A stretch of 64,000 nucleotides of DNA from an uncultured Gammaproteobacteria bacterium (lineage in GTDB: Bacteria; Pseudomonadota; Gammaproteobacteria; CAWJOP01): NCBI GenBank assembly GCA_963844535.1, contig CAWJOP010000002.1, forward strand, positions 668 to 64,667, written 5' to 3'. Shown one piece after another: positions 4,834-55,970 of this stretch. Both the position numbers and the translations under genes were made by a program. How positions within the stretch are numbered: the first letter of the stretch is position 1; every line of letters starts with the position of its first letter. A model generated the notes under the pieces. That model ran no database searches and had not been told where the DNA came from. It saw only the letters and a program-made list of their open reading frames with translations.

Positions 4834-5106
4834 CTATTTTTCGATGATACTTTCCGGCAGCGTAATGTTGAGCGCAAGTGTAGCGCTATTTTCAGTTCGC
4901 TCAATATCAACCTTAACTTGATCTTTTTCAACAGGAATATATTTGGCAATAACATCCAATAATTCTTTTTGTAATAACGGTAAGTAGTCTGGGCCGTTTC
5001 TTCTTAATCGTTCATGTGAAACGATGATCTGAAGCCTTTCCTTTGCTAACGAAGCTGTTACTGATTTTTTTTGAAGAGTACGAATAAGATGATTCAACAT
5101 GTTCAT
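4834..5106 (-). CDS. minE: Cell division topological specificity factor MinE
   Basis: 90 aa. The start overlaps the minD stop. The conserved region [12 protein letters not shown] is present. Confidence 0.85.
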
Positions 5107-45768: not shown

Positions 45769-47292
45769 ATGCAAAAACACTCACTTAAAAGTTTACTGAA
45801 TTCTTGGATTGAAATCGAAACAAAATATGATGGCTTGATTAATCATTTATCAATGGATAGTCGACATATCCAGCCAGGCGATATCTTTTTTGCTTTAGAA
45901 GGAGGGCAAAAAGACGGTCGCATGTTTGTGCAGCAAGCTGTTGATAAGGGGGCTATAGCTGTTTTGTGTGAGAAAAAAGATCAGGCTGATAGAGCTTCGG
46001 TATTGATTAATATCAATGACAAAAAAATCCCGATGTTTTTTATTGAAAAACTTGAGGAAAAAATCGGTGAAATTGCCGCGAAATTTTATGATTACCCTGC
46101 TAAAAAACTCACGGTGATTGGCGTAACAGGAACCAATGGAAAAACTTCATGTACACAATGGATAGCGAAAGCATTAAATTATTTCAATATACCATGTGGC
46201 GTGATAGGGACATTAGGATATGGGCTCCCTGGCGATTTAAATAGCGCTGAATATACCACGCCGTTTGCTATTGATGTCCAAAGAATACTTGCTGATTTTT
46301 GTGCGAAAGGCGCTAAAGCAGTGGCTATGGAAGTTTCTTCACATGGATTGGTGCAGCATCGTGTTGCTGGGGTAGAATTTAGCTTGGCAACTTTTACTAA
46401 TTTAACCCACGATCACCTCGATTATCATGGCAGTTTAGCTAATTATGCAGCAGCGAAAAAGCAGTTATTTAATTGGCCTTCATTGCAGCAAAGCATTTTT
46501 AATTTAGATGATTTTTATGGACGACTCTGGTTTGTCGAGTATAAAAACCAAAAGCCTTGTTATGGTTATTCATTACAGCCTGATATATGCCAATTATTTT
46601 CTAAAGATTTTTTGGTTTATACACCGAGTTTTTCTTTTTCAGAAAAAAGTATTGAAGCAACGGTGGTTACTCCATGGGGCGAAGGACTGCTCAGTAGCCC
46701 TTTATTGGGCAAATTTAATTTAAGTAATTTGTTGGTGGTTTTAACTAATTTATGTCTTATGGGCGTTGCATTTACAGATGCGCTTTCAGTGATTCCGCTA
46801 TTAGATAGCTTGCCGGGGCGTATGCAAGTGATTAGTGATGAAGGAAAACCTACGGTGGTAATTGATTATTCACATACCCCAGATTCGCTTTTGCATGCAC
46901 TACAAAGTTTACGCGAACATTGCACTGGTAAGCTTTGGTGTGTATTTGGTTGTGGTGGCGATCGAGACAAAACCAAACGACCCATAATGGGAAAAATTGC
47001 TGAGCAACATGCAGATTATGTGATAATTACCGATGATAATCCTCGACACGAAAATCCAAAATCGATTGTTGCGGATATATTGTTAGGTCTTGCTATTGAT
47101 TCGGCGGTAGTTATTGAACACAATCGGCGTTTGGCAATATTGCATGCACTTACTAGCGCAAATGCTGGAGATATTGTATTGATTGCTGGCAAGGGACATG
47201 AGCGCTATCAACAAATTGGCGATGAAAAAATCCCCTTTAGTGATGCAGTTGAGGCACAATTGGTGCTTAAAGCCTGTTCAAAATCTCGCTAG
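45769..47292 (+). CDS. murE: UDP-N-acetylmuramoyl-L-alanyl-D-glutamate--2,6-diaminopimelate ligase
   Basis: 507 aa. P-loop GVTGTNGKTS. DNPR motif (TDDNPRHE). The last 7 codons and the stop lie inside MITE copy 2. Confidence 0.9.
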   Translation: MQKHSLKSLLNSWIEIETKYDGLINHLSMDSRHIQPGDIFFALEGGQKDGRMFVQQAVDKGAIAVLCEKKDQADRASVLININDKKIPMFFIEKLEEKIGEIAAKFYDYPAKKLTVIGVTGTNGKTSCTQWIAKALNYFNIPCGVIGTLGYGLPGDLNSAEYTTPFAIDVQRILADFCAKGAKAVAMEVSSHGLVQHRVAGVEFSLATFTNLTHDHLDYHGSLANYAAAKKQLFNWPSLQQSIFNLDDFYGRLWFVEYKNQKPCYGYSLQPDICQLFSKDFLVYTPSFSFSEKSIEATVVTPWGEGLLSSPLLGKFNLSNLLVVLTNLCLMGVAFTDALSVIPLLDSLPGRMQVISDEGKPTVVIDYSHTPDSLLHALQSLREHCTGKLWCVFGCGGDRDKTKRPIMGKIAEQHADYVIITDDNPRHENPKSIVADILLGLAIDSAVVIEHNRRLAILHALTSANAGDIVLIAGKGHERYQQIGDEKIPFSDAVEAQLVLKACSKSR

Positions 47293-48826: not shown

Positions 48827-48880
48827 TCAGTATTTGTTGATTAATGCTGAAAAAATAGGGTTTTTTATTCTGGAAAATTT

Positions 48881-49963
48881 ATGTTATTTGAATTAACGCA
48901 ATATCTTAGTAATTATTTTCATGGGTTTCATGTTTTTCAATATCTAACTCTTCGCGCCATTCTTGCCAGTCTGACAGCATTGTTAATTGCGTTGTTATTT
49001 GGACCGTGCATGATTCGTTGGCTAATGCAATATCAGAAGGGTCAGCCAATTCGTGATGATGGTCCGCAAAGTCATTTGAGCAAAGCAGGTACGCCAACAA
49101 TGGGCGGAGCGCTAATTCTGATGGCAGTTATTTTGTCGACACTGTTATGGGCAAATTTAACGAATAAATATGTTTGGGTTGTGCTGGGTGTTACTGCTTC
49201 GTTTGCTGCAATTGGTTGGTATGATGATCACTTAAAACTGGTGATGCGAAACAGTAAAGGATTAGCAGCTAGATGGAAGTATTTGTGGCAATCCATTATT
49301 GCAATTGCGACTGGAATTTATCTTTATGCAACTGCAATTGTTCCAGCCGAAACACAACTTATTGTGCCATTTTTTAAATATGCAGTTGTTTCCTTGGGGC
49401 TTCTCTATATTGTGTTAACTTACCTCGTTATTGTGGGTACAAGTAATGCAGTTAATTTAACTGATGGTTTAGATGGGCTTGCTATTATGCCAACCGTGAT
49501 GGTGGGTGGGGCGCTTGGAATTTTTGCATATGTCGCTGGGAATATCTCATTTTCAAATTATCTCGCTATTCCCTATATTCCGGGCGCTGGGGAATTAGTG
49601 GTTTTTTGCGGTGCTTTAGTTGGCGCAGGTCTTGGATTTCTTTGGTTTAATACTTATCCAGCGCAGATATTTATGGGGGATATTGGCGCCCTCGGATTAG
49701 GTGCTGCACTGGGTGTTATTGCAGTGATTGTCAGACAAGAACTTGCATTTATGATTATGGGTGGAATTTTTGTGATGGAAACTTTGTCAGTTATTTTACA
49801 AGTAGCATCATTTAAATTAACGGGTAAACGAATTTTTAAAATGGCGCCATTACATCATCATTTTGAATTAAAAGGTTGGCCAGAGCCGCGAGTTATTGTG
49901 CGTTTTTGGATTATTACGGTAGTGCTGGTATTAACCGGGTTAGCTACCTTGAAACTGCGTTAA
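48881..49963 (+). CDS. mraY: Phospho-N-acetylmuramoyl-pentapeptide transferase
   Basis: 360 aa. 10 TM helices. Conserved [13 protein letters not shown] and the HHHFE motif. Confidence 0.9.
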
Positions 49964-50043
49964 AAAGAGAAAGCGTATTTTTAACTTTAAAAATGCAAGT
50001 TGCAATCGTCAAAATAATCTTTATAATTAATAATACTACTTCC

Positions 50044-50096
50044 CCTGCGGTTTCGTCCGCAGGCCACAACGCCCCTTTATGGGGCGTTTGTTTTTA
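50044..50096 (+). terminator. Tandem hairpins ending in a rho-independent terminator after mraY
   Basis: First hairpin CCTGCGG-tttcgt-CCGCAGG. Second hairpin AACGCCCC-ttta-TGGGGCGTT, followed by TGTTTTT. Confidence 0.65.
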
Positions 50097-50098
50097 AT

Positions 50099-50755
50099 AT
50101 GTCTCAGCATGATATGAAAAAGCGTACGATTATTTATGTCGATGGTTTTAATCTTTATTACGGTTCGCTAAGAAATTCGCCCTATAAATGGCTTGACTTA
50201 AAATCCTTATTTGAAAAATTATTGGGTCATTATCATTTAGTGAGCGAAATTAAATACTTTACTGCGAAAATATCACATCAGAAAGTTAATGATGAAGCTC
50301 CAAAACGGCAAAGTACTTATCTCTATGCCCTTCAAAAACATACGCCTGAGTTAAGCATTTATTATGGTCATTATTTGCAATCTAAAATTAAAGCAAAGTT
50401 GTGTAATCCACCACCAAAGTCATCATCGTATGTAGAAGTCTATAAGACAGAAGAAAAAGGTTCTGATGTAAATTTAGCCCTTCATATGCTAAATGATGCC
50501 TGGTTAGATAAGTATGATTCTGCAGTACTTGTTTCAAATGATAGTGATATTGCTGAGGCATTGCGGTTTATTATTCATGATCACCATAAAGAAATTGGCT
50601 TAATAGTACCTGGCCATGAAAAAGATCGAAGGGTATCAAAGGCACTAAAAAAATATGCGCATTTTATCAAACGTATACGCGCAGGTGTTTTAGCAGATTC
50701 TCAACTTCCTAATCCTATTTTGGGCACACAGCTTTATAAACCAAACACGTGGTAA
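50099..50755 (+). CDS. NYN-domain (LabA/YacP-like, PIN-fold) predicted ribonuclease
   Basis: 218 aa. MKKRTIIYVDGFNLYYG ... EKGSDVNLALHMLNDAW ... DSAVLVSNDSDIAEAL place the conserved acidic residues as in NYN domains. Inserted between mraY and murD. Confidence 0.65.
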   Translation: MSQHDMKKRTIIYVDGFNLYYGSLRNSPYKWLDLKSLFEKLLGHYHLVSEIKYFTAKISHQKVNDEAPKRQSTYLYALQKHTPELSIYYGHYLQSKIKAKLCNPPPKSSSYVEVYKTEEKGSDVNLALHMLNDAWLDKYDSAVLVSNDSDIAEALRFIIHDHHKEIGLIVPGHEKDRRVSKALKKYAHFIKRIRAGVLADSQLPNPILGTQLYKPNTW

Positions 50756-50760
50756 AAAGT

Positions 50761-51165
50761 TTAATTAAACCAGCTATCAAAAAACTTCCTTTCTGTTATA
50801 GTTACTGATTTTTTAGGTTCATTTTTTATAATAGCAGTACACAATTTACCAACTGTAGAATTTGTTGTGGGAAACTGCTGAGAGAGGTAAGGGGCACAGC
50901 TTTGTGTTGTAATCTTAGGAATGATAGAGTTATTTCCCATTGCCATTGAAAAAATTATTAACCCATTTAAGATAAAATAAGTTAGTTTTGATAAATATTT
51001 TAAGGAATAGTTTTCTACAATTATTAACGAAAATAAAAAACTAACGGTTAATGCTGACCATTTTTGTTGAATTGCAAAGTAGAACCAAAATGTATTAGCG
51101 ATACCCATCACTGTAATTCCTACCAGGTATGGTTGCCATACAGCTTTTGGGCTTATGATCTCCAT
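50761..51165 (-). CDS. Hypothetical small membrane protein (134 aa, 3-4 TM helices)
   Basis: ORF with hydrophobic segments. Convergent with the NYN gene. Confidence 0.3.
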   Translation of the reverse strand: MEIISPKAVWQPYLVGITVMGIANTFWFYFAIQQKWSALTVSFLFSLIIVENYSLKYLSKLTYFILNGLIIFSMAMGNNSIIPKITTQSCAPYLSQQFPTTNSTVGKLCTAIIKNEPKKSVTITERKFFDSWFN

Positions 51166-51294
51166 TTTTTAAATCCTTTATCTTTCTTGGAAATTTTTAT
51201 TCCATAATATACTATTAATTCTATGTGACATAGGATTATGTGATGAAATATTTTCCTGAATGTATTGCTCTGGACAGGGTGTTTATTAACCAAA

Positions 51295-52638
51295 ATGAAA
51301 CAAACCTCATCTCAAACTGTTATTATCGGCCTTGGCAAAACTGGCCTATCATGTGCGCATTTTTTGCACGCTCAGCAAGAACCTTTTATAGTGATTGATA
51401 ATCGGAATGATCCACCCGAGTTAGATCAGTTTAAACAAGTTTTTCCCAATGTACCGGTTTATTTAGGAGAGTTTGATCCAAAAGTTTTGCAAACAGCAAA
51501 ACAATTGATTGTTAGTCCAGGGATTTCTTTAAAAGAAAAAGCTATCGCGCAAGCAATTACGCAAGGAATTCCGGCCATTGGTGATATTGAACTTTTTGCG
51601 CGCCACGTAAAATCGCCAGTAATTGCAATTACTGGTTCAAATGCAAAAAGCACAGTGACTACTTTGGTTGGGCAATTATTGCAGAGTATAGGTTTAAAAG
51701 TTGCGGTGGGCGGCAATTTGGGAATTCCTGCGTTAGATCTATTACTAGATCATGCTCCTGATTATTTTGTTTTAGAGCTTTCCAGTTTTCAGTTAGAAGA
51801 AACATTTAGTTTAGCGCCGAAAGTTGCAACTATTCTGAATGTGTCTCCTGATCATATGGATCGTTATCAGACACTAGATGATTATATCGCTGCCAAACAA
51901 AGAGTGTACCATCAAAGTGGCCAGCAAGTGATTAATCGACAAGATCACAACACTCATCCGTGTCATGTTACCAATCTGATTTCTTTTGGATTGGATGCAC
52001 CTTGTGATAATCAATTTGGTTTGCGCGATGATCATGGAGAAACTATATTATGTTTGGGAAAAACCCCACTTTTATCAAGCAAAGAATTATTAATTAAGGG
52101 ACAACATAACTGGGCGAATGCCTTAGCGGCTTTAGCTATTTGTCATGCTATTGGCGTTTCAGTATTTGAATTGTTACCAGCATTGAAAAAATTTTCTGGA
52201 CTTTCGCATCGTTGTGAATTTGTTGCGGAGCACCAACAAGTTAGTTGGTACAATGATTCAAAAGGAACCAATGTTGGTGCAGCAGTTGCCGCACTTTTAG
52301 GCCTTGGTTCAGCGATTTCTGGCAAGTTAATTTGGATTGCTGGCGGTGTTGGTAAAAATGCGGATTTTAGCCCATTGAAAATGCCGGCAAAAAAATATGT
52401 TCGGACAGCCGTTCTAATAGGACAGGATGCGAAATTGATTGAAGAAACTTTACAAACTGATGTTGAAATTGTTCATGCAAATAGTTTAAAAGAAGCAGTA
52501 GAAGAGGCCGCTAAAGCAGCTAAACCGCATGATGCAGTGCTTTTATCTCCAGCTTGTGCTAGTTTTGATATGTTTAAAAATTTTGAACATCGTGGTGAAG
52601 CATTTAAGAACTTAGTACATTGTTTTAAACATGAATGA
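51295..52638 (+). CDS. murD: UDP-N-acetylmuramoylalanine--D-glutamate ligase
   Basis: Starts MKQTSSQTVIIGLGKTGLS at the ATG at 51295. Mur ligase P-loop ITGSNAKST. The listed ORF start at 51265 adds 10 codons. Confidence 0.9.
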   Translation: MKQTSSQTVIIGLGKTGLSCAHFLHAQQEPFIVIDNRNDPPELDQFKQVFPNVPVYLGEFDPKVLQTAKQLIVSPGISLKEKAIAQAITQGIPAIGDIELFARHVKSPVIAITGSNAKSTVTTLVGQLLQSIGLKVAVGGNLGIPALDLLLDHAPDYFVLELSSFQLEETFSLAPKVATILNVSPDHMDRYQTLDDYIAAKQRVYHQSGQQVINRQDHNTHPCHVTNLISFGLDAPCDNQFGLRDDHGETILCLGKTPLLSSKELLIKGQHNWANALAALAICHAIGVSVFELLPALKKFSGLSHRCEFVAEHQQVSWYNDSKGTNVGAAVAALLGLGSAISGKLIWIAGGVGKNADFSPLKMPAKKYVRTAVLIGQDAKLIEETLQTDVEIVHANSLKEAVEEAAKAAKPHDAVLLSPACASFDMFKNFEHRGEAFKNLVHCFKHE

Positions 52639-53857
52639 ATCTAACAATACATCGCAAAAATCTAGTACGCAGCCCGTTTTTTACGATCGCTATCTACTAT
52701 TAACTACACTAGGGTTAGTTACCATTGGGCTACTGATGTTAGCTTCAGCGTCTGTTTCAGTTAGCGATCATTTTTATCATAATCCTTTTCATTTTTTAAT
52801 TCGCCAAGTAAGTTTTCTATTATTAGGTTTGATATTAGCTGTGTTAGTTTTGAAACTCGATTTGAGTATTTGGCAGCGGTTTGGCGGCATATTGCTCATC
52901 ATGAGCATTCTTTTATTAATCGTGGTGCTAATTCCGGGAATTGGTCGGCAAATCAATGGCAGTATGCGTTGGATTGGCATCGGGCCTTTTGGCTTGCAAA
53001 TATCTGAGTTTGCCAAACTTGCGGTAATTATTTATATGGCAGGTTATTTAGTGCGCCATGAAAAATTGGTGCGAGAAAGTAATAGTGGATTTTTAAGGCC
53101 ACTTTTAGTCTTGGGAATTATTGGGCTTTTACTACTGAAAGAACCAGATTTTGGTGCAACCACTGTGATTCTTATCACTTCTCTTGGCATGATGTTTTTA
53201 GCAGGCGCCAGGTTGTGGCAGTTTTTAGTTTTATTTTTGTTAGTCACCATAAGCCTGTTTTTTTTAGCGATTTCTTCTCCTTATCGTTTATTACGACTTA
53301 CCACTTTTTTAAATCCTTGGGCTAATCCATTTGATAGTGGTTATCAATTGACGCAATCGTTAATTGCATTTGGTAGAGGTGGATGGTTTGGAGTGGGTTT
53401 AGGAGAAAGTATTCAAAAACTTTTTTACTTACCTGATGCACACACTGATTTTTTATTTGCAGTTACCGCTGAAGAGTTAGGATTAATTGGTGCAGTGGGA
53501 ATTATTTTTTTATTTATTCTACTCATTGGGCGCACTTTTAATATTGGCAGACAAGCTGAAAAACAAGGCCGACCTTTTGCTGCTTATTTAGCTTATGGCA
53601 TTGGTCTTTGGTTGTCCGTGCAATCCATGATCAACATGGGAGTTAATATAGGTCTTTTACCCACTAAAGGATTAACTTTGCCGCTGATGAGCTATGGTGG
53701 TAGTAGCATGATGATGACTTGCGTAGCAATTGCAATCTTATTTCGGATTGACTATGAGTCTCGCCTGTTAAAAACTGGCAGACGGCCATCGAATTTAACA
53801 CATCAAAGAATGTCGGTGAGGAAGGGAAGTTATCGTATGGGGAGATCGGAATTTTAA
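52631..53857 (+). CDS. ftsW: Peptidoglycan glycosyltransferase FtsW (SEDS family)
   Basis: 408 aa. 10 TM helices. SEDS motifs. Overlaps the murD stop. Confidence 0.85.
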   Translation: MNESNNTSQKSSTQPVFYDRYLLLTTLGLVTIGLLMLASASVSVSDHFYHNPFHFLIRQVSFLLLGLILAVLVLKLDLSIWQRFGGILLIMSILLLIVVLIPGIGRQINGSMRWIGIGPFGLQISEFAKLAVIIYMAGYLVRHEKLVRESNSGFLRPLLVLGIIGLLLLKEPDFGATTVILITSLGMMFLAGARLWQFLVLFLLVTISLFFLAISSPYRLLRLTTFLNPWANPFDSGYQLTQSLIAFGRGGWFGVGLGESIQKLFYLPDAHTDFLFAVTAEELGLIGAVGIIFLFILLIGRTFNIGRQAEKQGRPFAAYLAYGIGLWLSVQSMINMGVNIGLLPTKGLTLPLMSYGGSSMMMTCVAIAILFRIDYESRLLKTGRRPSNLTHQRMSVRKGSYRMGRSEF

Positions 53858-55780: not shown

Positions 55781-55811
55781 AGAGTTAGTCTGTATGCGAC
55801 GATGTTTTAGC

Positions 55812-55933
55812 TTGTCATGCCAGCGCAGGCTGGCATCCAGAAATATTCAACATGGTTACTGGATTGCCGCGCACATCCTGTGCTCGCAATGACGGTCTTA
55901 CGAAGGAATATGCTGGATGCCAGCCTGCGCTGG
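55812..55933. repeat. 122-bp inverted-repeat element: 29-bp arms CTTGTCATGCCAGCGCAGGCTGGCATCCAG / CTGGATGCCAGCCTGCGCTGGCATGACAA around a structured ~63-bp core
   Basis: Arms are exact reverse complements. Each arm holds the palindrome GCCAGCGCAGGCTGGC. The core contains a GCACATCCTGTGC hairpin and a 20-mer also found at 13541..13560. Confidence 0.6.
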
Positions 55934-55970
55934 CATGACAAATTTAAAAAATTATCGTGTATAAATAAAT

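Follow-up and report, generated by a model that had tools for sequence, protein, structure and literature searches.

Why are the cell-wall genes mraY and murD, which normally stand side by side, separated by 1,331 bp in one uncultured gammaproteobacterium? We analyzed a 64,000-nucleotide stretch of DNA, hereafter the window, which corresponds to positions 668 to 64,667 on the forward strand of contig CAWJOP010000002.1 (GenBank assembly GCA_963844535.1). A first interpretation made from the letters alone (the sequence-only reading) had described a division and cell wall (dcw) cluster interrupted by a strong terminator after mraY, a 218-residue NYN-domain nuclease gene on the same strand, a 134-residue membrane-protein gene on the opposite strand and a 130-bp AT-rich gap before murD. 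All of these elements are present, the gap measures 129 bp, and close relatives carry an empty site at this position. The terminator lies where it had been placed, but it is not mraY's. It is the 3' hairpin of a conserved small RNA, which is predicted to have a separate promoter and which came with the NYN gene. This RNA and the nuclease form a conserved two-component module that co-occurs in any orientation across phyla and mobile elements. Our best overall explanation, to which we give slightly better than an even chance, is that an acquired insert carries an RNA-nuclease module that would act like a type III toxin-antitoxin or abortive-infection system. The locus is arranged as follows.

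48881-49963, plus strand: mraY, the last gene ahead of the insertion (Pfam Glycos_transf_4 and MraY_sig1)
49961-49963, plus strand: mraY stop codon, TAA
49964-50098: non-coding stretch from mraY to the NYN open reading frame
49965-51294: strain-specific insertion of 1,330 bp, replacing CTTT of the ancestral TAA-ACTTT-ATG junction
49999-50758, plus strand: portable cassette of promoter, small RNA and NYN open reading frame, 760 bp
50000-50027, plus strand: predicted sigma-70-like promoter (TTGCAA, 16-nucleotide spacer, TATAAT; 10 of 12 matches in the promoter scan)
50035-50096, plus strand: predicted small RNA of about 62 nucleotides with two hairpins (covariance-model score 72 bits)
50099-50755, plus strand: NYN open reading frame, 218 amino acids
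50761-51165, minus strand: membrane-protein open reading frame, 134 amino acids, convergent with the NYN gene
51166-51294: AT-rich spacer, 129 bp
51295-52638, plus strand: murD (MurD-like_N, Mur_ligase_M and Mur_ligase_C), ancestral ATG kept
52631-53857, plus strand: ftsW

To define the insertion, we used two close relatives, metagenome contigs L089 and L090, which were found by exact look-up of the MraY protein. Both encode an MraY protein identical to that of the window and carry murD 5 nucleotides downstream, with the junction TAA-ACTTT-ATG. The window is 98.6% identical to these contigs up to position 49964 and 96.2-96.5% identical from 51295 on (blastn), and the alignment to L089 resumes exactly at the murD ATG. 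The relatives therefore carry an empty site rather than the same gene without a terminator. Direct succession of mraY and murD, which the sequence-only reading had taken as the normal state, also holds more broadly: among the matches listed for MraY relatives of at most 75% identity, the gap is below 200 bp in about 60 other gammaproteobacterial loci with both genes. GC content is 0.30-0.35 within the insert, compared to 0.38-0.42 in the flanks. An independent Logan assembly (L227, run ERR10755945) is 99.86% identical over 49852-52046 and covers both junctions, indicating that they are not a binning artefact. These comparisons indicate that positions 49965-51294 are horizontally acquired DNA, lodged exactly between the stop codon of mraY and the start codon of murD. 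We have high confidence that both the insertion and the RNA-NYN module described below are real.

Within the insert, homology to other loci is confined to the cassette at 49999-50758. This cassette is 78% identical (blastn) to positions 7888-8645 of L081, a locus resembling an integrative and conjugative element (ICE), and the match runs from the -35 box to 3 nucleotides beyond the NYN stop codon. The insert is composed of two independent units, namely the promoter-RNA-NYN cassette and an unrelated membrane-protein gene with its own promoter region. As to how the DNA arrived, a repeat search of the two ends of the insert revealed neither a convincing target-site duplication nor convincing terminal inverted repeats, the open reading frame map contains no transposase or integrase gene within the insert, and no tRNA or transfer-messenger RNA gene that could serve as an integration target was found in the window. 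By eye, positions 49975-50000 (GCGTATTTTTAACTTTAAAAATGCAAG) weakly resemble the ancestral junction GCGTTAAACTTTATGAAAC, which may be due to chance. An integron cassette with an attC site was rejected on anatomy, as the element has two separate helices together with a promoter and a U tract. Thus, the insert lacks the terminal repeats, target-site duplication, recombinase and attC site of insertion sequences, transposons and integron cassettes.

The non-coding stretch after mraY is predicted to encode a compact structured RNA. Transcription from the sigma-70-like promoter would start at about 50035, and RNA from 50035-50096 folds into two hairpins (-29.3 kcal/mol, z = -6.3). The 5' tail is ACUACUUCC. 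In the first hairpin (P1), 50044-50050 pairs with 50057-50063 around a UUUCGU loop. The second (P2), at 50066-50091 with one bulged U, is an intrinsic terminator that is followed by the U tract TTTGTTTTT; the terminator scan reports AACGCCCC-TTTAT-GGGGCGTT followed by TGTTTTT at 50068-50088, with eight pairs of which six are GC. The terminator as a whole occupies 50066-50096, and the NYN start lies 3-18 nucleotides further on, depending on the start codon. The ATG at 50099 directly abuts the U tract. The start is probably at 50114, giving a 213-residue protein that begins MKKRT, because this start is shared by the homologues and the database gene call. Some NYN homologues in databases have been over-extended upstream so that they "translate" the RNA, for example those with N-terminal extensions ending in AFVF. 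The tandem-repeat program TRF found nothing in 49800-51400. The 5' CCCC was considered as an antiterminator and dropped, since those C residues pair with a conserved GGG at the base of P1.

No Rfam 15 family matched the window at its gathering score, and the RNA strand of the insert matched nothing at E values up to 10. When eleven other NYN loci were searched at E ≤ 10, the single sub-threshold match was to BjrC68, in L118. Full-text literature searches turned up no publication connecting NYN or DUF88 proteins with a partner RNA. With no Rfam family at threshold and no paper in the literature searched, the small RNA is apparently undescribed. Because the hairpins are shared with unrelated NYN loci and are absent after mraY in L089 and L090, we reassigned the terminator from mraY to the cassette.

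We then examined how consistently the RNA accompanies the nuclease. Four unrelated NYN loci read upstream of the gene showed the same architecture, with compensatory changes in both stems. Read from the 5' side, a -10 box (TATAAT) is separated by about 7 nucleotides from ACUAC(U)UCCCC; two hairpins joined by a short linker come next, the second of them GC-rich, and a U tract leads up to the start codon. In most homologous loci, a pair of boxes resembling TTGACA and TATAAT can be made out by eye ahead of the RNA. We fetched 80 metagenomic and 52 viral loci encoding NYN homologues down to about 35% identity and built a covariance model from 20 leaders. This model (R1) found the RNA beside the NYN gene in 122 of 143 classified loci, and a second model (R2), run with filters off, added eight. 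Using both models, the RNA adjoins the NYN gene in 130 of 139 assessable loci, distributed as follows.

116 loci: RNA upstream of the NYN gene on the same strand, median distance from model end to start codon 6 nucleotides
9 loci: RNA immediately downstream of the NYN gene and convergent with it
5 loci: RNA upstream of the NYN gene and divergent from it

Loci without the RNA mostly encode NYN homologues of 35% identity or less. The convergent and divergent set includes Actinomycetota plasmids and a mycobacteriophage, and each of the 13 such copies that we read has its own TTGACA/TATAAT-like boxes about 7 nucleotides before the RNA 5' end. The search was specific, with one covariance-model match, the window's own copy, in 1.04 Mb of control DNA.

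The predicted structure is conserved as well. In an alignment of 82 sequences, 96.3% of cells are paired, compared to 39-54% in slid controls, and 17 of 18 pairs have changes on both sides. RNAalifold recovered the same helices from a plain MAFFT alignment, and 14 of the 17 pairs show compensatory changes. Among unpaired positions, conservation is seen at an A and a C of the 5' tail, in the UUCG-type loop of P1, at the bulged U and in the U tract. A G-C pair is conserved at the base of P2. The RNA-NYN pair occurs in named organisms of at least six phyla, including the following.

Spirochaetota: Leptospira
Actinomycetota: Paenarthrobacter and a Mycobacterium prophage, both convergent
Alphaproteobacteria and Gammaproteobacteria: including Phaeobacter, and plasmids of 3.4-4.5 kb from E. 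coli and Klebsiella
Acidobacteriota: Granulicella
Deinococcota: Thermus, divergent and with a weak score

The RNA is present as a single copy in most loci. Two full tandem copies lie upstream of the NYN gene in L173 (3248-3310 and 3316-3379; 41.0 and 67.9 bits), and the 3.4-kb E. coli plasmid pKMi006_5 (L223) has RNA at 291-333 and 340-402, one copy clear and the other weaker, truncated and just upstream. Such tandem copies are reminiscent of type III antitoxins with their repeat arrays. In L122 (1095-1159) and in 11 viral contigs (L229-L239, seven of them distinct), full copies of the RNA were found without a NYN gene in the DNA fetched; the viral cases come from one narrow pattern scan. In L229, the RNA lies on the minus strand at 5023-5066, after an apparent HigB/HigA pair in our own translation of the open reading frames. 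In L235, the RNA is followed by sequence resembling the beginning of a tRNA gene. A NYN gene could have been cut off in two of these contigs, as L231 is short and the RNA of L235 sits near the end of its locus. Copies that lack NYN may be remnants or decoy antitoxins of phages, or they may point to partners other than NYN proteins.

The nuclease half of the module belongs to a well-populated family. Residues 9-190 of the NYN protein match PF01936 with 39.3 bits against a cut-off of 24.2, and the PADLOC hidden Markov model for HEC-09 gives a full-length match (positions 2-202 of the 203 in the profile; E = 1.1e-44). The protein also matches phrog_7929. D10, D118, D143 and D145 are invariant among 30 homologues, and the corresponding motifs in the window are YVDGFN, EKGSDV and SNDSD. 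An AlphaFold2 model (mean predicted confidence, pLDDT, 91) has as its top Foldseek matches 2qip (VPA0982; E = 4e-8) and the MARF1 NYN structures 5yaa and 6fdl. The protein is therefore predicted to adopt a PIN-like alpha/beta fold with conserved acidic residues and an intact active site.

About 8,000 relatives were scored in the protein search. By tblastn, the NYN protein is encoded on 453 plasmids, including enterobacterial plasmids of only 3.4-4.6 kb, and a homologue is present in a Mycobacterium abscessus prophage. Four homologues illustrate the neighborhoods in which the gene is found.

L081, 82% identical to the window protein: flanked by genes resembling cI, Cro and DnaC on one side and a VirB type IV secretion operon on the other (ICE-like)
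L088, 63% identical: adjoins a HigBA-like pair
L087, 61% identical: adjoins a Bro-N gene
Legionella pneumophila, 59% identical: between a P4-type integrase and PemK/MazE

The sequence-only reading had linked NYN nucleases to toxin-like or defence contexts, and this link is borne out by the PemK/MazE, HigBA-like and ICE-like loci, the plasmids, the prophages and the HEC-09 match. It had also allowed that the protein might be the conserved housekeeping LabA-like protein of this lineage. Given the mobile elements on which its homologues lie, the NYN gene is instead an accessory one that goes with such elements and with defence contexts. On Pseudomonas plasmids, longer NYN homologues (H4, H20-H23 and H25; for example L245, 1471-2433) are labelled "nicB / 6-hydroxy-3-succinoylpyridine 3-monooxygenase", which looks like a propagated misannotation. 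No RNA motif was detected beside the L245 homologue, the one such Pseudomonas plasmid examined.

What might the RNA do for the nuclease? In ToxIN-type systems, terminator read-through sets the ratio of RNA to toxin. By analogy, the sigma-70-like promoter would drive the two-hairpin RNA of about 62 nucleotides, and the second hairpin would terminate most transcripts. In the common layout, the median of 6 nucleotides between RNA and NYN gene leaves no space for a second promoter, and the nuclease would therefore be transcribed only by read-through of the RNA terminator. A minority of transcripts would then reach the NYN open reading frame, leaving the RNA in excess, and the RNA would probably also bind the nuclease in trans and hold it in check. 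The RNase would be freed if the element were lost or if a phage shut off host transcription. Carriage on tiny plasmids and in islands rich in toxin-antitoxin genes fits such an addiction or abortive-infection role. A search for a cognate partner of the nuclease led to the conserved RNA and not to the membrane protein, and this RNA is most likely that partner. We consider it probable, from the arrangement of the loci, that the RNA is a discrete trans-acting partner of the NYN protein. That it specifically acts as an antitoxin restraining the NYN RNase by a type III-like mechanism is an analogy to which we give somewhat less than an even chance. More tentative still is a broader proposal, in which the RNA and HEC-09 NYN proteins would constitute a widespread, unrecognized class of RNA-protein toxin-antitoxin or abortive-infection systems. 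Such a class, spread over at least six phyla on plasmids, ICEs and prophages, would add a fourth family to the type III-like systems, one in which the toxin is PIN-like and the RNA antitoxin is not repetitive. The phage copies without NYN would be decoy antitoxins that disarm the nuclease.

Several observations weigh against the toxin-antitoxin interpretation. The HEC-09 representative that has been tested, from Pseudomonas amygdali, gave no phage defence in E. coli. The RNA is single-copy and the nuclease has a NYN fold, unlike classical type III systems, in which the antitoxin is a tandem-repeat RNA that a toxin of the ToxN/AbiQ fold processes. The U tract is weak in several subfamilies (CUGCAUUUC, CUGCUAUAGG), and termination is thus not universal. 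The 116 upstream, same-strand copies are equally compatible with a purely cis-acting leader. The covariation count of 17 of 18 pairs comes from an alignment fitted to the covariance model. Finally, co-occurrence was counted on loci selected for NYN, and the frequency of RNA without NYN was sampled by one narrow pattern scan of viral contigs.

We considered the possibility that the two-hairpin element is only a cis-acting 5' leader or attenuator. In this case the NYN gene would be silent until an antiterminator, the NYN protein itself or a phage factor permits read-through, and the RNA would have no function once released. The predominant layout suits such a device, because in 116 of 130 copies the RNA is directly upstream on the same strand, a median of 6 nucleotides from the start codon, and transcription of the NYN gene must pass the terminator, which in the window is canonical. 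However, the RNA is convergent or divergent in 14 loci, 13 of which were read and have their own promoter, and other copies have no NYN gene nearby. In addition, folding the RNA together with downstream sequence revealed no alternative antiterminator pairing, and some subfamilies have weak U tracts. The convergent and divergent layouts, the NYN-less copies and the tandem copies together favor a trans-acting RNA over a mere leader, and we regard the attenuator as unlikely.

A second alternative retains the trans-acting RNA but changes its role. The RNA could be a cofactor, guide or dedicated substrate of the NYN protein rather than its inhibitor, either in a ribonucleoprotein that recognizes targets or as a regulatory small RNA that the NYN protein matures for the mobile element. 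In favor of such a role, the RNA and the nuclease gene are linked whatever their relative orientation, and the RNA is preceded by a promoter of its own. Moreover, the conserved unpaired A and C of the 5' tail, the UUCG loop and the bulged U suggest specific recognition, and NYN-less copies could act alone. Against a guide function, the single-stranded 5' tail is about 8 nucleotides long and largely invariant, and thus cannot encode variable targets. The order of promoter, RNA, terminator and nuclease, and the plasmid and toxin-antitoxin-island contexts, better fit an addiction module. We therefore judge a cofactor, guide or substrate role to be improbable, somewhat more so than the attenuator.

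The RNA antitoxin proposal can also be measured against described systems. HEC-09 (Hma-embedded candidate 9, PADLOC PDLC04163) is a candidate that consists of a single NYN protein, is reported to share three catalytic Asp residues with MARF1, and, in the one member tested, failed to protect against the phages used (Payne et al., bioRxiv 10.1101/2024.01.29.577857). Over the 133 residues available, the window protein and the tested P. amygdali protein are 37% identical. The window gene belongs to the same single-NYN family of about 205-215 residues, shares its defence and mobile-element contexts, and has homologues whose invariant Asp residues match in number the three reported as catalytic. It differs in that the paper describes one gene and mentions no RNA, whereas the window gene has a conserved small-RNA partner. 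In addition, no Hma system was identified beside the window gene, which is flanked by mraY and murD. Given the negative result for the HEC-09 member, "defence system" remains a label for the window protein.

The closest functional comparison is with type III toxin-antitoxin systems (ToxIN, CptIN and TenpIN, and also AvcID). Like these, the cassette has a promoter, a structured noncoding RNA, an intrinsic terminator and a promoterless gene for a putative ribonuclease. It is carried on plasmids, prophages and islands, and it shows occasional tandem RNA copies and RNA copies without a nuclease gene. The noncoding RNA is adjacent to, and conserved with, the putative toxin gene in 130 of 139 loci, and a terminator lies between the RNA and the putative toxin gene, which has no separate promoter. 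Yet the candidate toxin has a NYN/PIN-like fold rather than that of ToxN/AbiQ, CptN or TenpN, and the RNA, known here from sequence, is normally single-copy rather than a repeat array and can be convergent or divergent. We therefore propose that the module would work like a type III system without being a member of the class, as two defining features, the repeat array and the ToxN-type fold, are lacking. An AbiF system with RNA-based regulation, according to the title of a preprint, is listed with the type III-like relatives.

Other families share parts of the module. LabA and VPA0982-type NYN proteins and the MARF1 NYN domain resemble the window protein in fold (Foldseek) and in PF01936, but they are only 13-18% identical to it, and the window protein has an extra C-terminal region and is mobile instead of a chromosomal housekeeping protein. 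VapBC and other type II systems with PIN toxins likewise place a PIN-like metal-dependent RNase in a small module on mobile elements. The window cassette, however, has no protein antitoxin gene, and its conserved neighbor is an RNA. On the RNA side, the Bradyrhizobiaceae small RNA BjrC68 (RF02353) also has two hairpins, a U tail and a 5' ACUAC, and the NYN-linked RNA of L118 (109-180) scores 26.9 bits against it (E = 0.001), short of the gathering score of 39. The P1 sequences differ, and the window RNA and the RNAs of ten other loci give no match. It is possible that BjrC68 is an already described representative of this class of RNA.

The membrane-protein gene beyond the cassette was examined as a possible protein partner. 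It is a real gene, with 320 distant homologues. Judged by eye, its product and the homologues share a C-terminal RxFFxxWF motif and about three hydrophobic segments near the N terminus. The protein matches no Pfam, PADLOC or NCBIfam family, and the genomic context of one homologue amounts to a 2-kb contig. It was not found by tblastn in the other NYN loci searched, and its gene lies outside the shared 760-bp cassette. On these two results it was rejected as a partner of the NYN protein, and we treat the gene as separate cargo rather than part of the NYN module.

These data also bear on the arrangement implied by the sequence-only reading, in which the terminator is mraY's own and the NYN protein is a toxin with the convergent membrane protein, or another protein, as its immunity partner. 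The terminator is 100-130 nucleotides past the mraY stop codon and would stop mraY transcripts, and the two inserted genes are adjacent. In uninterrupted relatives, however, no hairpins follow mraY and murD is 5 nucleotides away, whereas the hairpins accompany NYN genes into unrelated loci. The membrane protein is not found in the other NYN loci searched, and its gene is not within the shared cassette. This arrangement is already largely refuted, and we consider it very improbable. That the arrangement is ancestral and was deleted in the relatives, or that the contig is a chimeric assembly, is scarcely credible: no target-site duplication or recombinase marks the event, but the independent Logan assembly spans both junctions, mraY and murD are adjacent in the roughly 60 other gammaproteobacteria among the matches listed, the insert is low in GC, and the closest homologue of the cassette is in an ICE-like locus.

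We next turned to the consequences for the host genes. Transcripts of murE-murF-mraY would now meet a strong terminator. murD and ftsW, having lost the 5-nucleotide coupling to mraY, would depend on read-through or on a new promoter in the 129-bp spacer. A promoter scan of this spacer (51166-51294) found sites facing both ways, which are consensus matches only.

51231 to 51204, minus strand: promoter-like site ATGTCA-16-TATTAT, which would serve the membrane-protein gene
51225-51252, plus strand: promoter-like site GTGACA-16-AATATT with a TG extension, which could drive murD

The murD start is the ATG at 51295, and the mechanical list of open reading frames instead uses a TTG at 51265. Thus, murD-ftsW may be uncoupled from murE-murF-mraY. 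The sequence-only reading had phrased this as an uncoupling from mraZ-driven control, a point that is moot because no mraZ, rsmH, ftsL or ftsI lies upstream in the window, where speA is found on the opposite strand instead. The dcw fragment of the window comprises only murE-murF-mraY-murD-ftsW. NCBIfam matches confirmed murF and ftsW, placed speA on the minus strand upstream of murE, and placed rpiA, mlaA and pgpA on the minus strand after ftsW; murG-murC-ddl-ftsQAZ do not follow ftsW in the window, and rpiA is there instead. The cluster is therefore fragmented, as had been claimed, with speA upstream and rpiA downstream. However, the break between ftsW and rpiA is also present in the uninterrupted relative L089, which indicates that fragmentation is a lineage trait, independent of the insertion.

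The window provides a natural case in which an essential and normally translationally coupled gene pair tolerates a terminator-bearing mobile cassette, and operon continuity of the dcw genes is dispensable in this lineage. It also holds a lesson for annotation, in that a hairpin and terminator just past a gene can belong to the next, mobile unit. The dcw anomaly is a modest curiosity, and the RNA component of a candidate defence gene is the stronger lead. HEC-09 has been treated as a single-gene candidate without demonstrated activity, and a conserved RNA partner could change how such genes are cloned and annotated. If RNA-NYN modules do form a class, this could bear on why HEC-09 has no assigned partner or demonstrated activity. 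If the RNA restrains the nuclease, type III-like toxin-antitoxin biology would reach the PIN/NYN superfamily and non-repeat RNAs, and a structured RNA family that Rfam lacks would be added.

A few further features of the region were noted. The mechanical speA open reading frame (GTG at 45784, minus strand) overlaps the murE start (45769) over 45769-45784. The NCBIfam match to speA starts about 26 codons into the frame, and there is probably room for a short divergent promoter region between speA and murE-murF-mraY. Between pgpA and a Kdo-kinase-like gene, positions 55805-55948 form a palindromic element resembling miniature inverted-repeat transposable elements or repetitive extragenic palindromes, with 36-nucleotide arms that are 92% complementary and 72 nucleotides apart; it aligns to L089 in both orientations. 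L089 itself carries a palindrome of about 100 bp (GTCATTGCGAGG...CGCAATGAC) at about 1395-1485 in the murF-mraY spacer. The corresponding spacer of the window (48827-48880) is without it, indicating that small mobile palindromes are polymorphic in this lineage.

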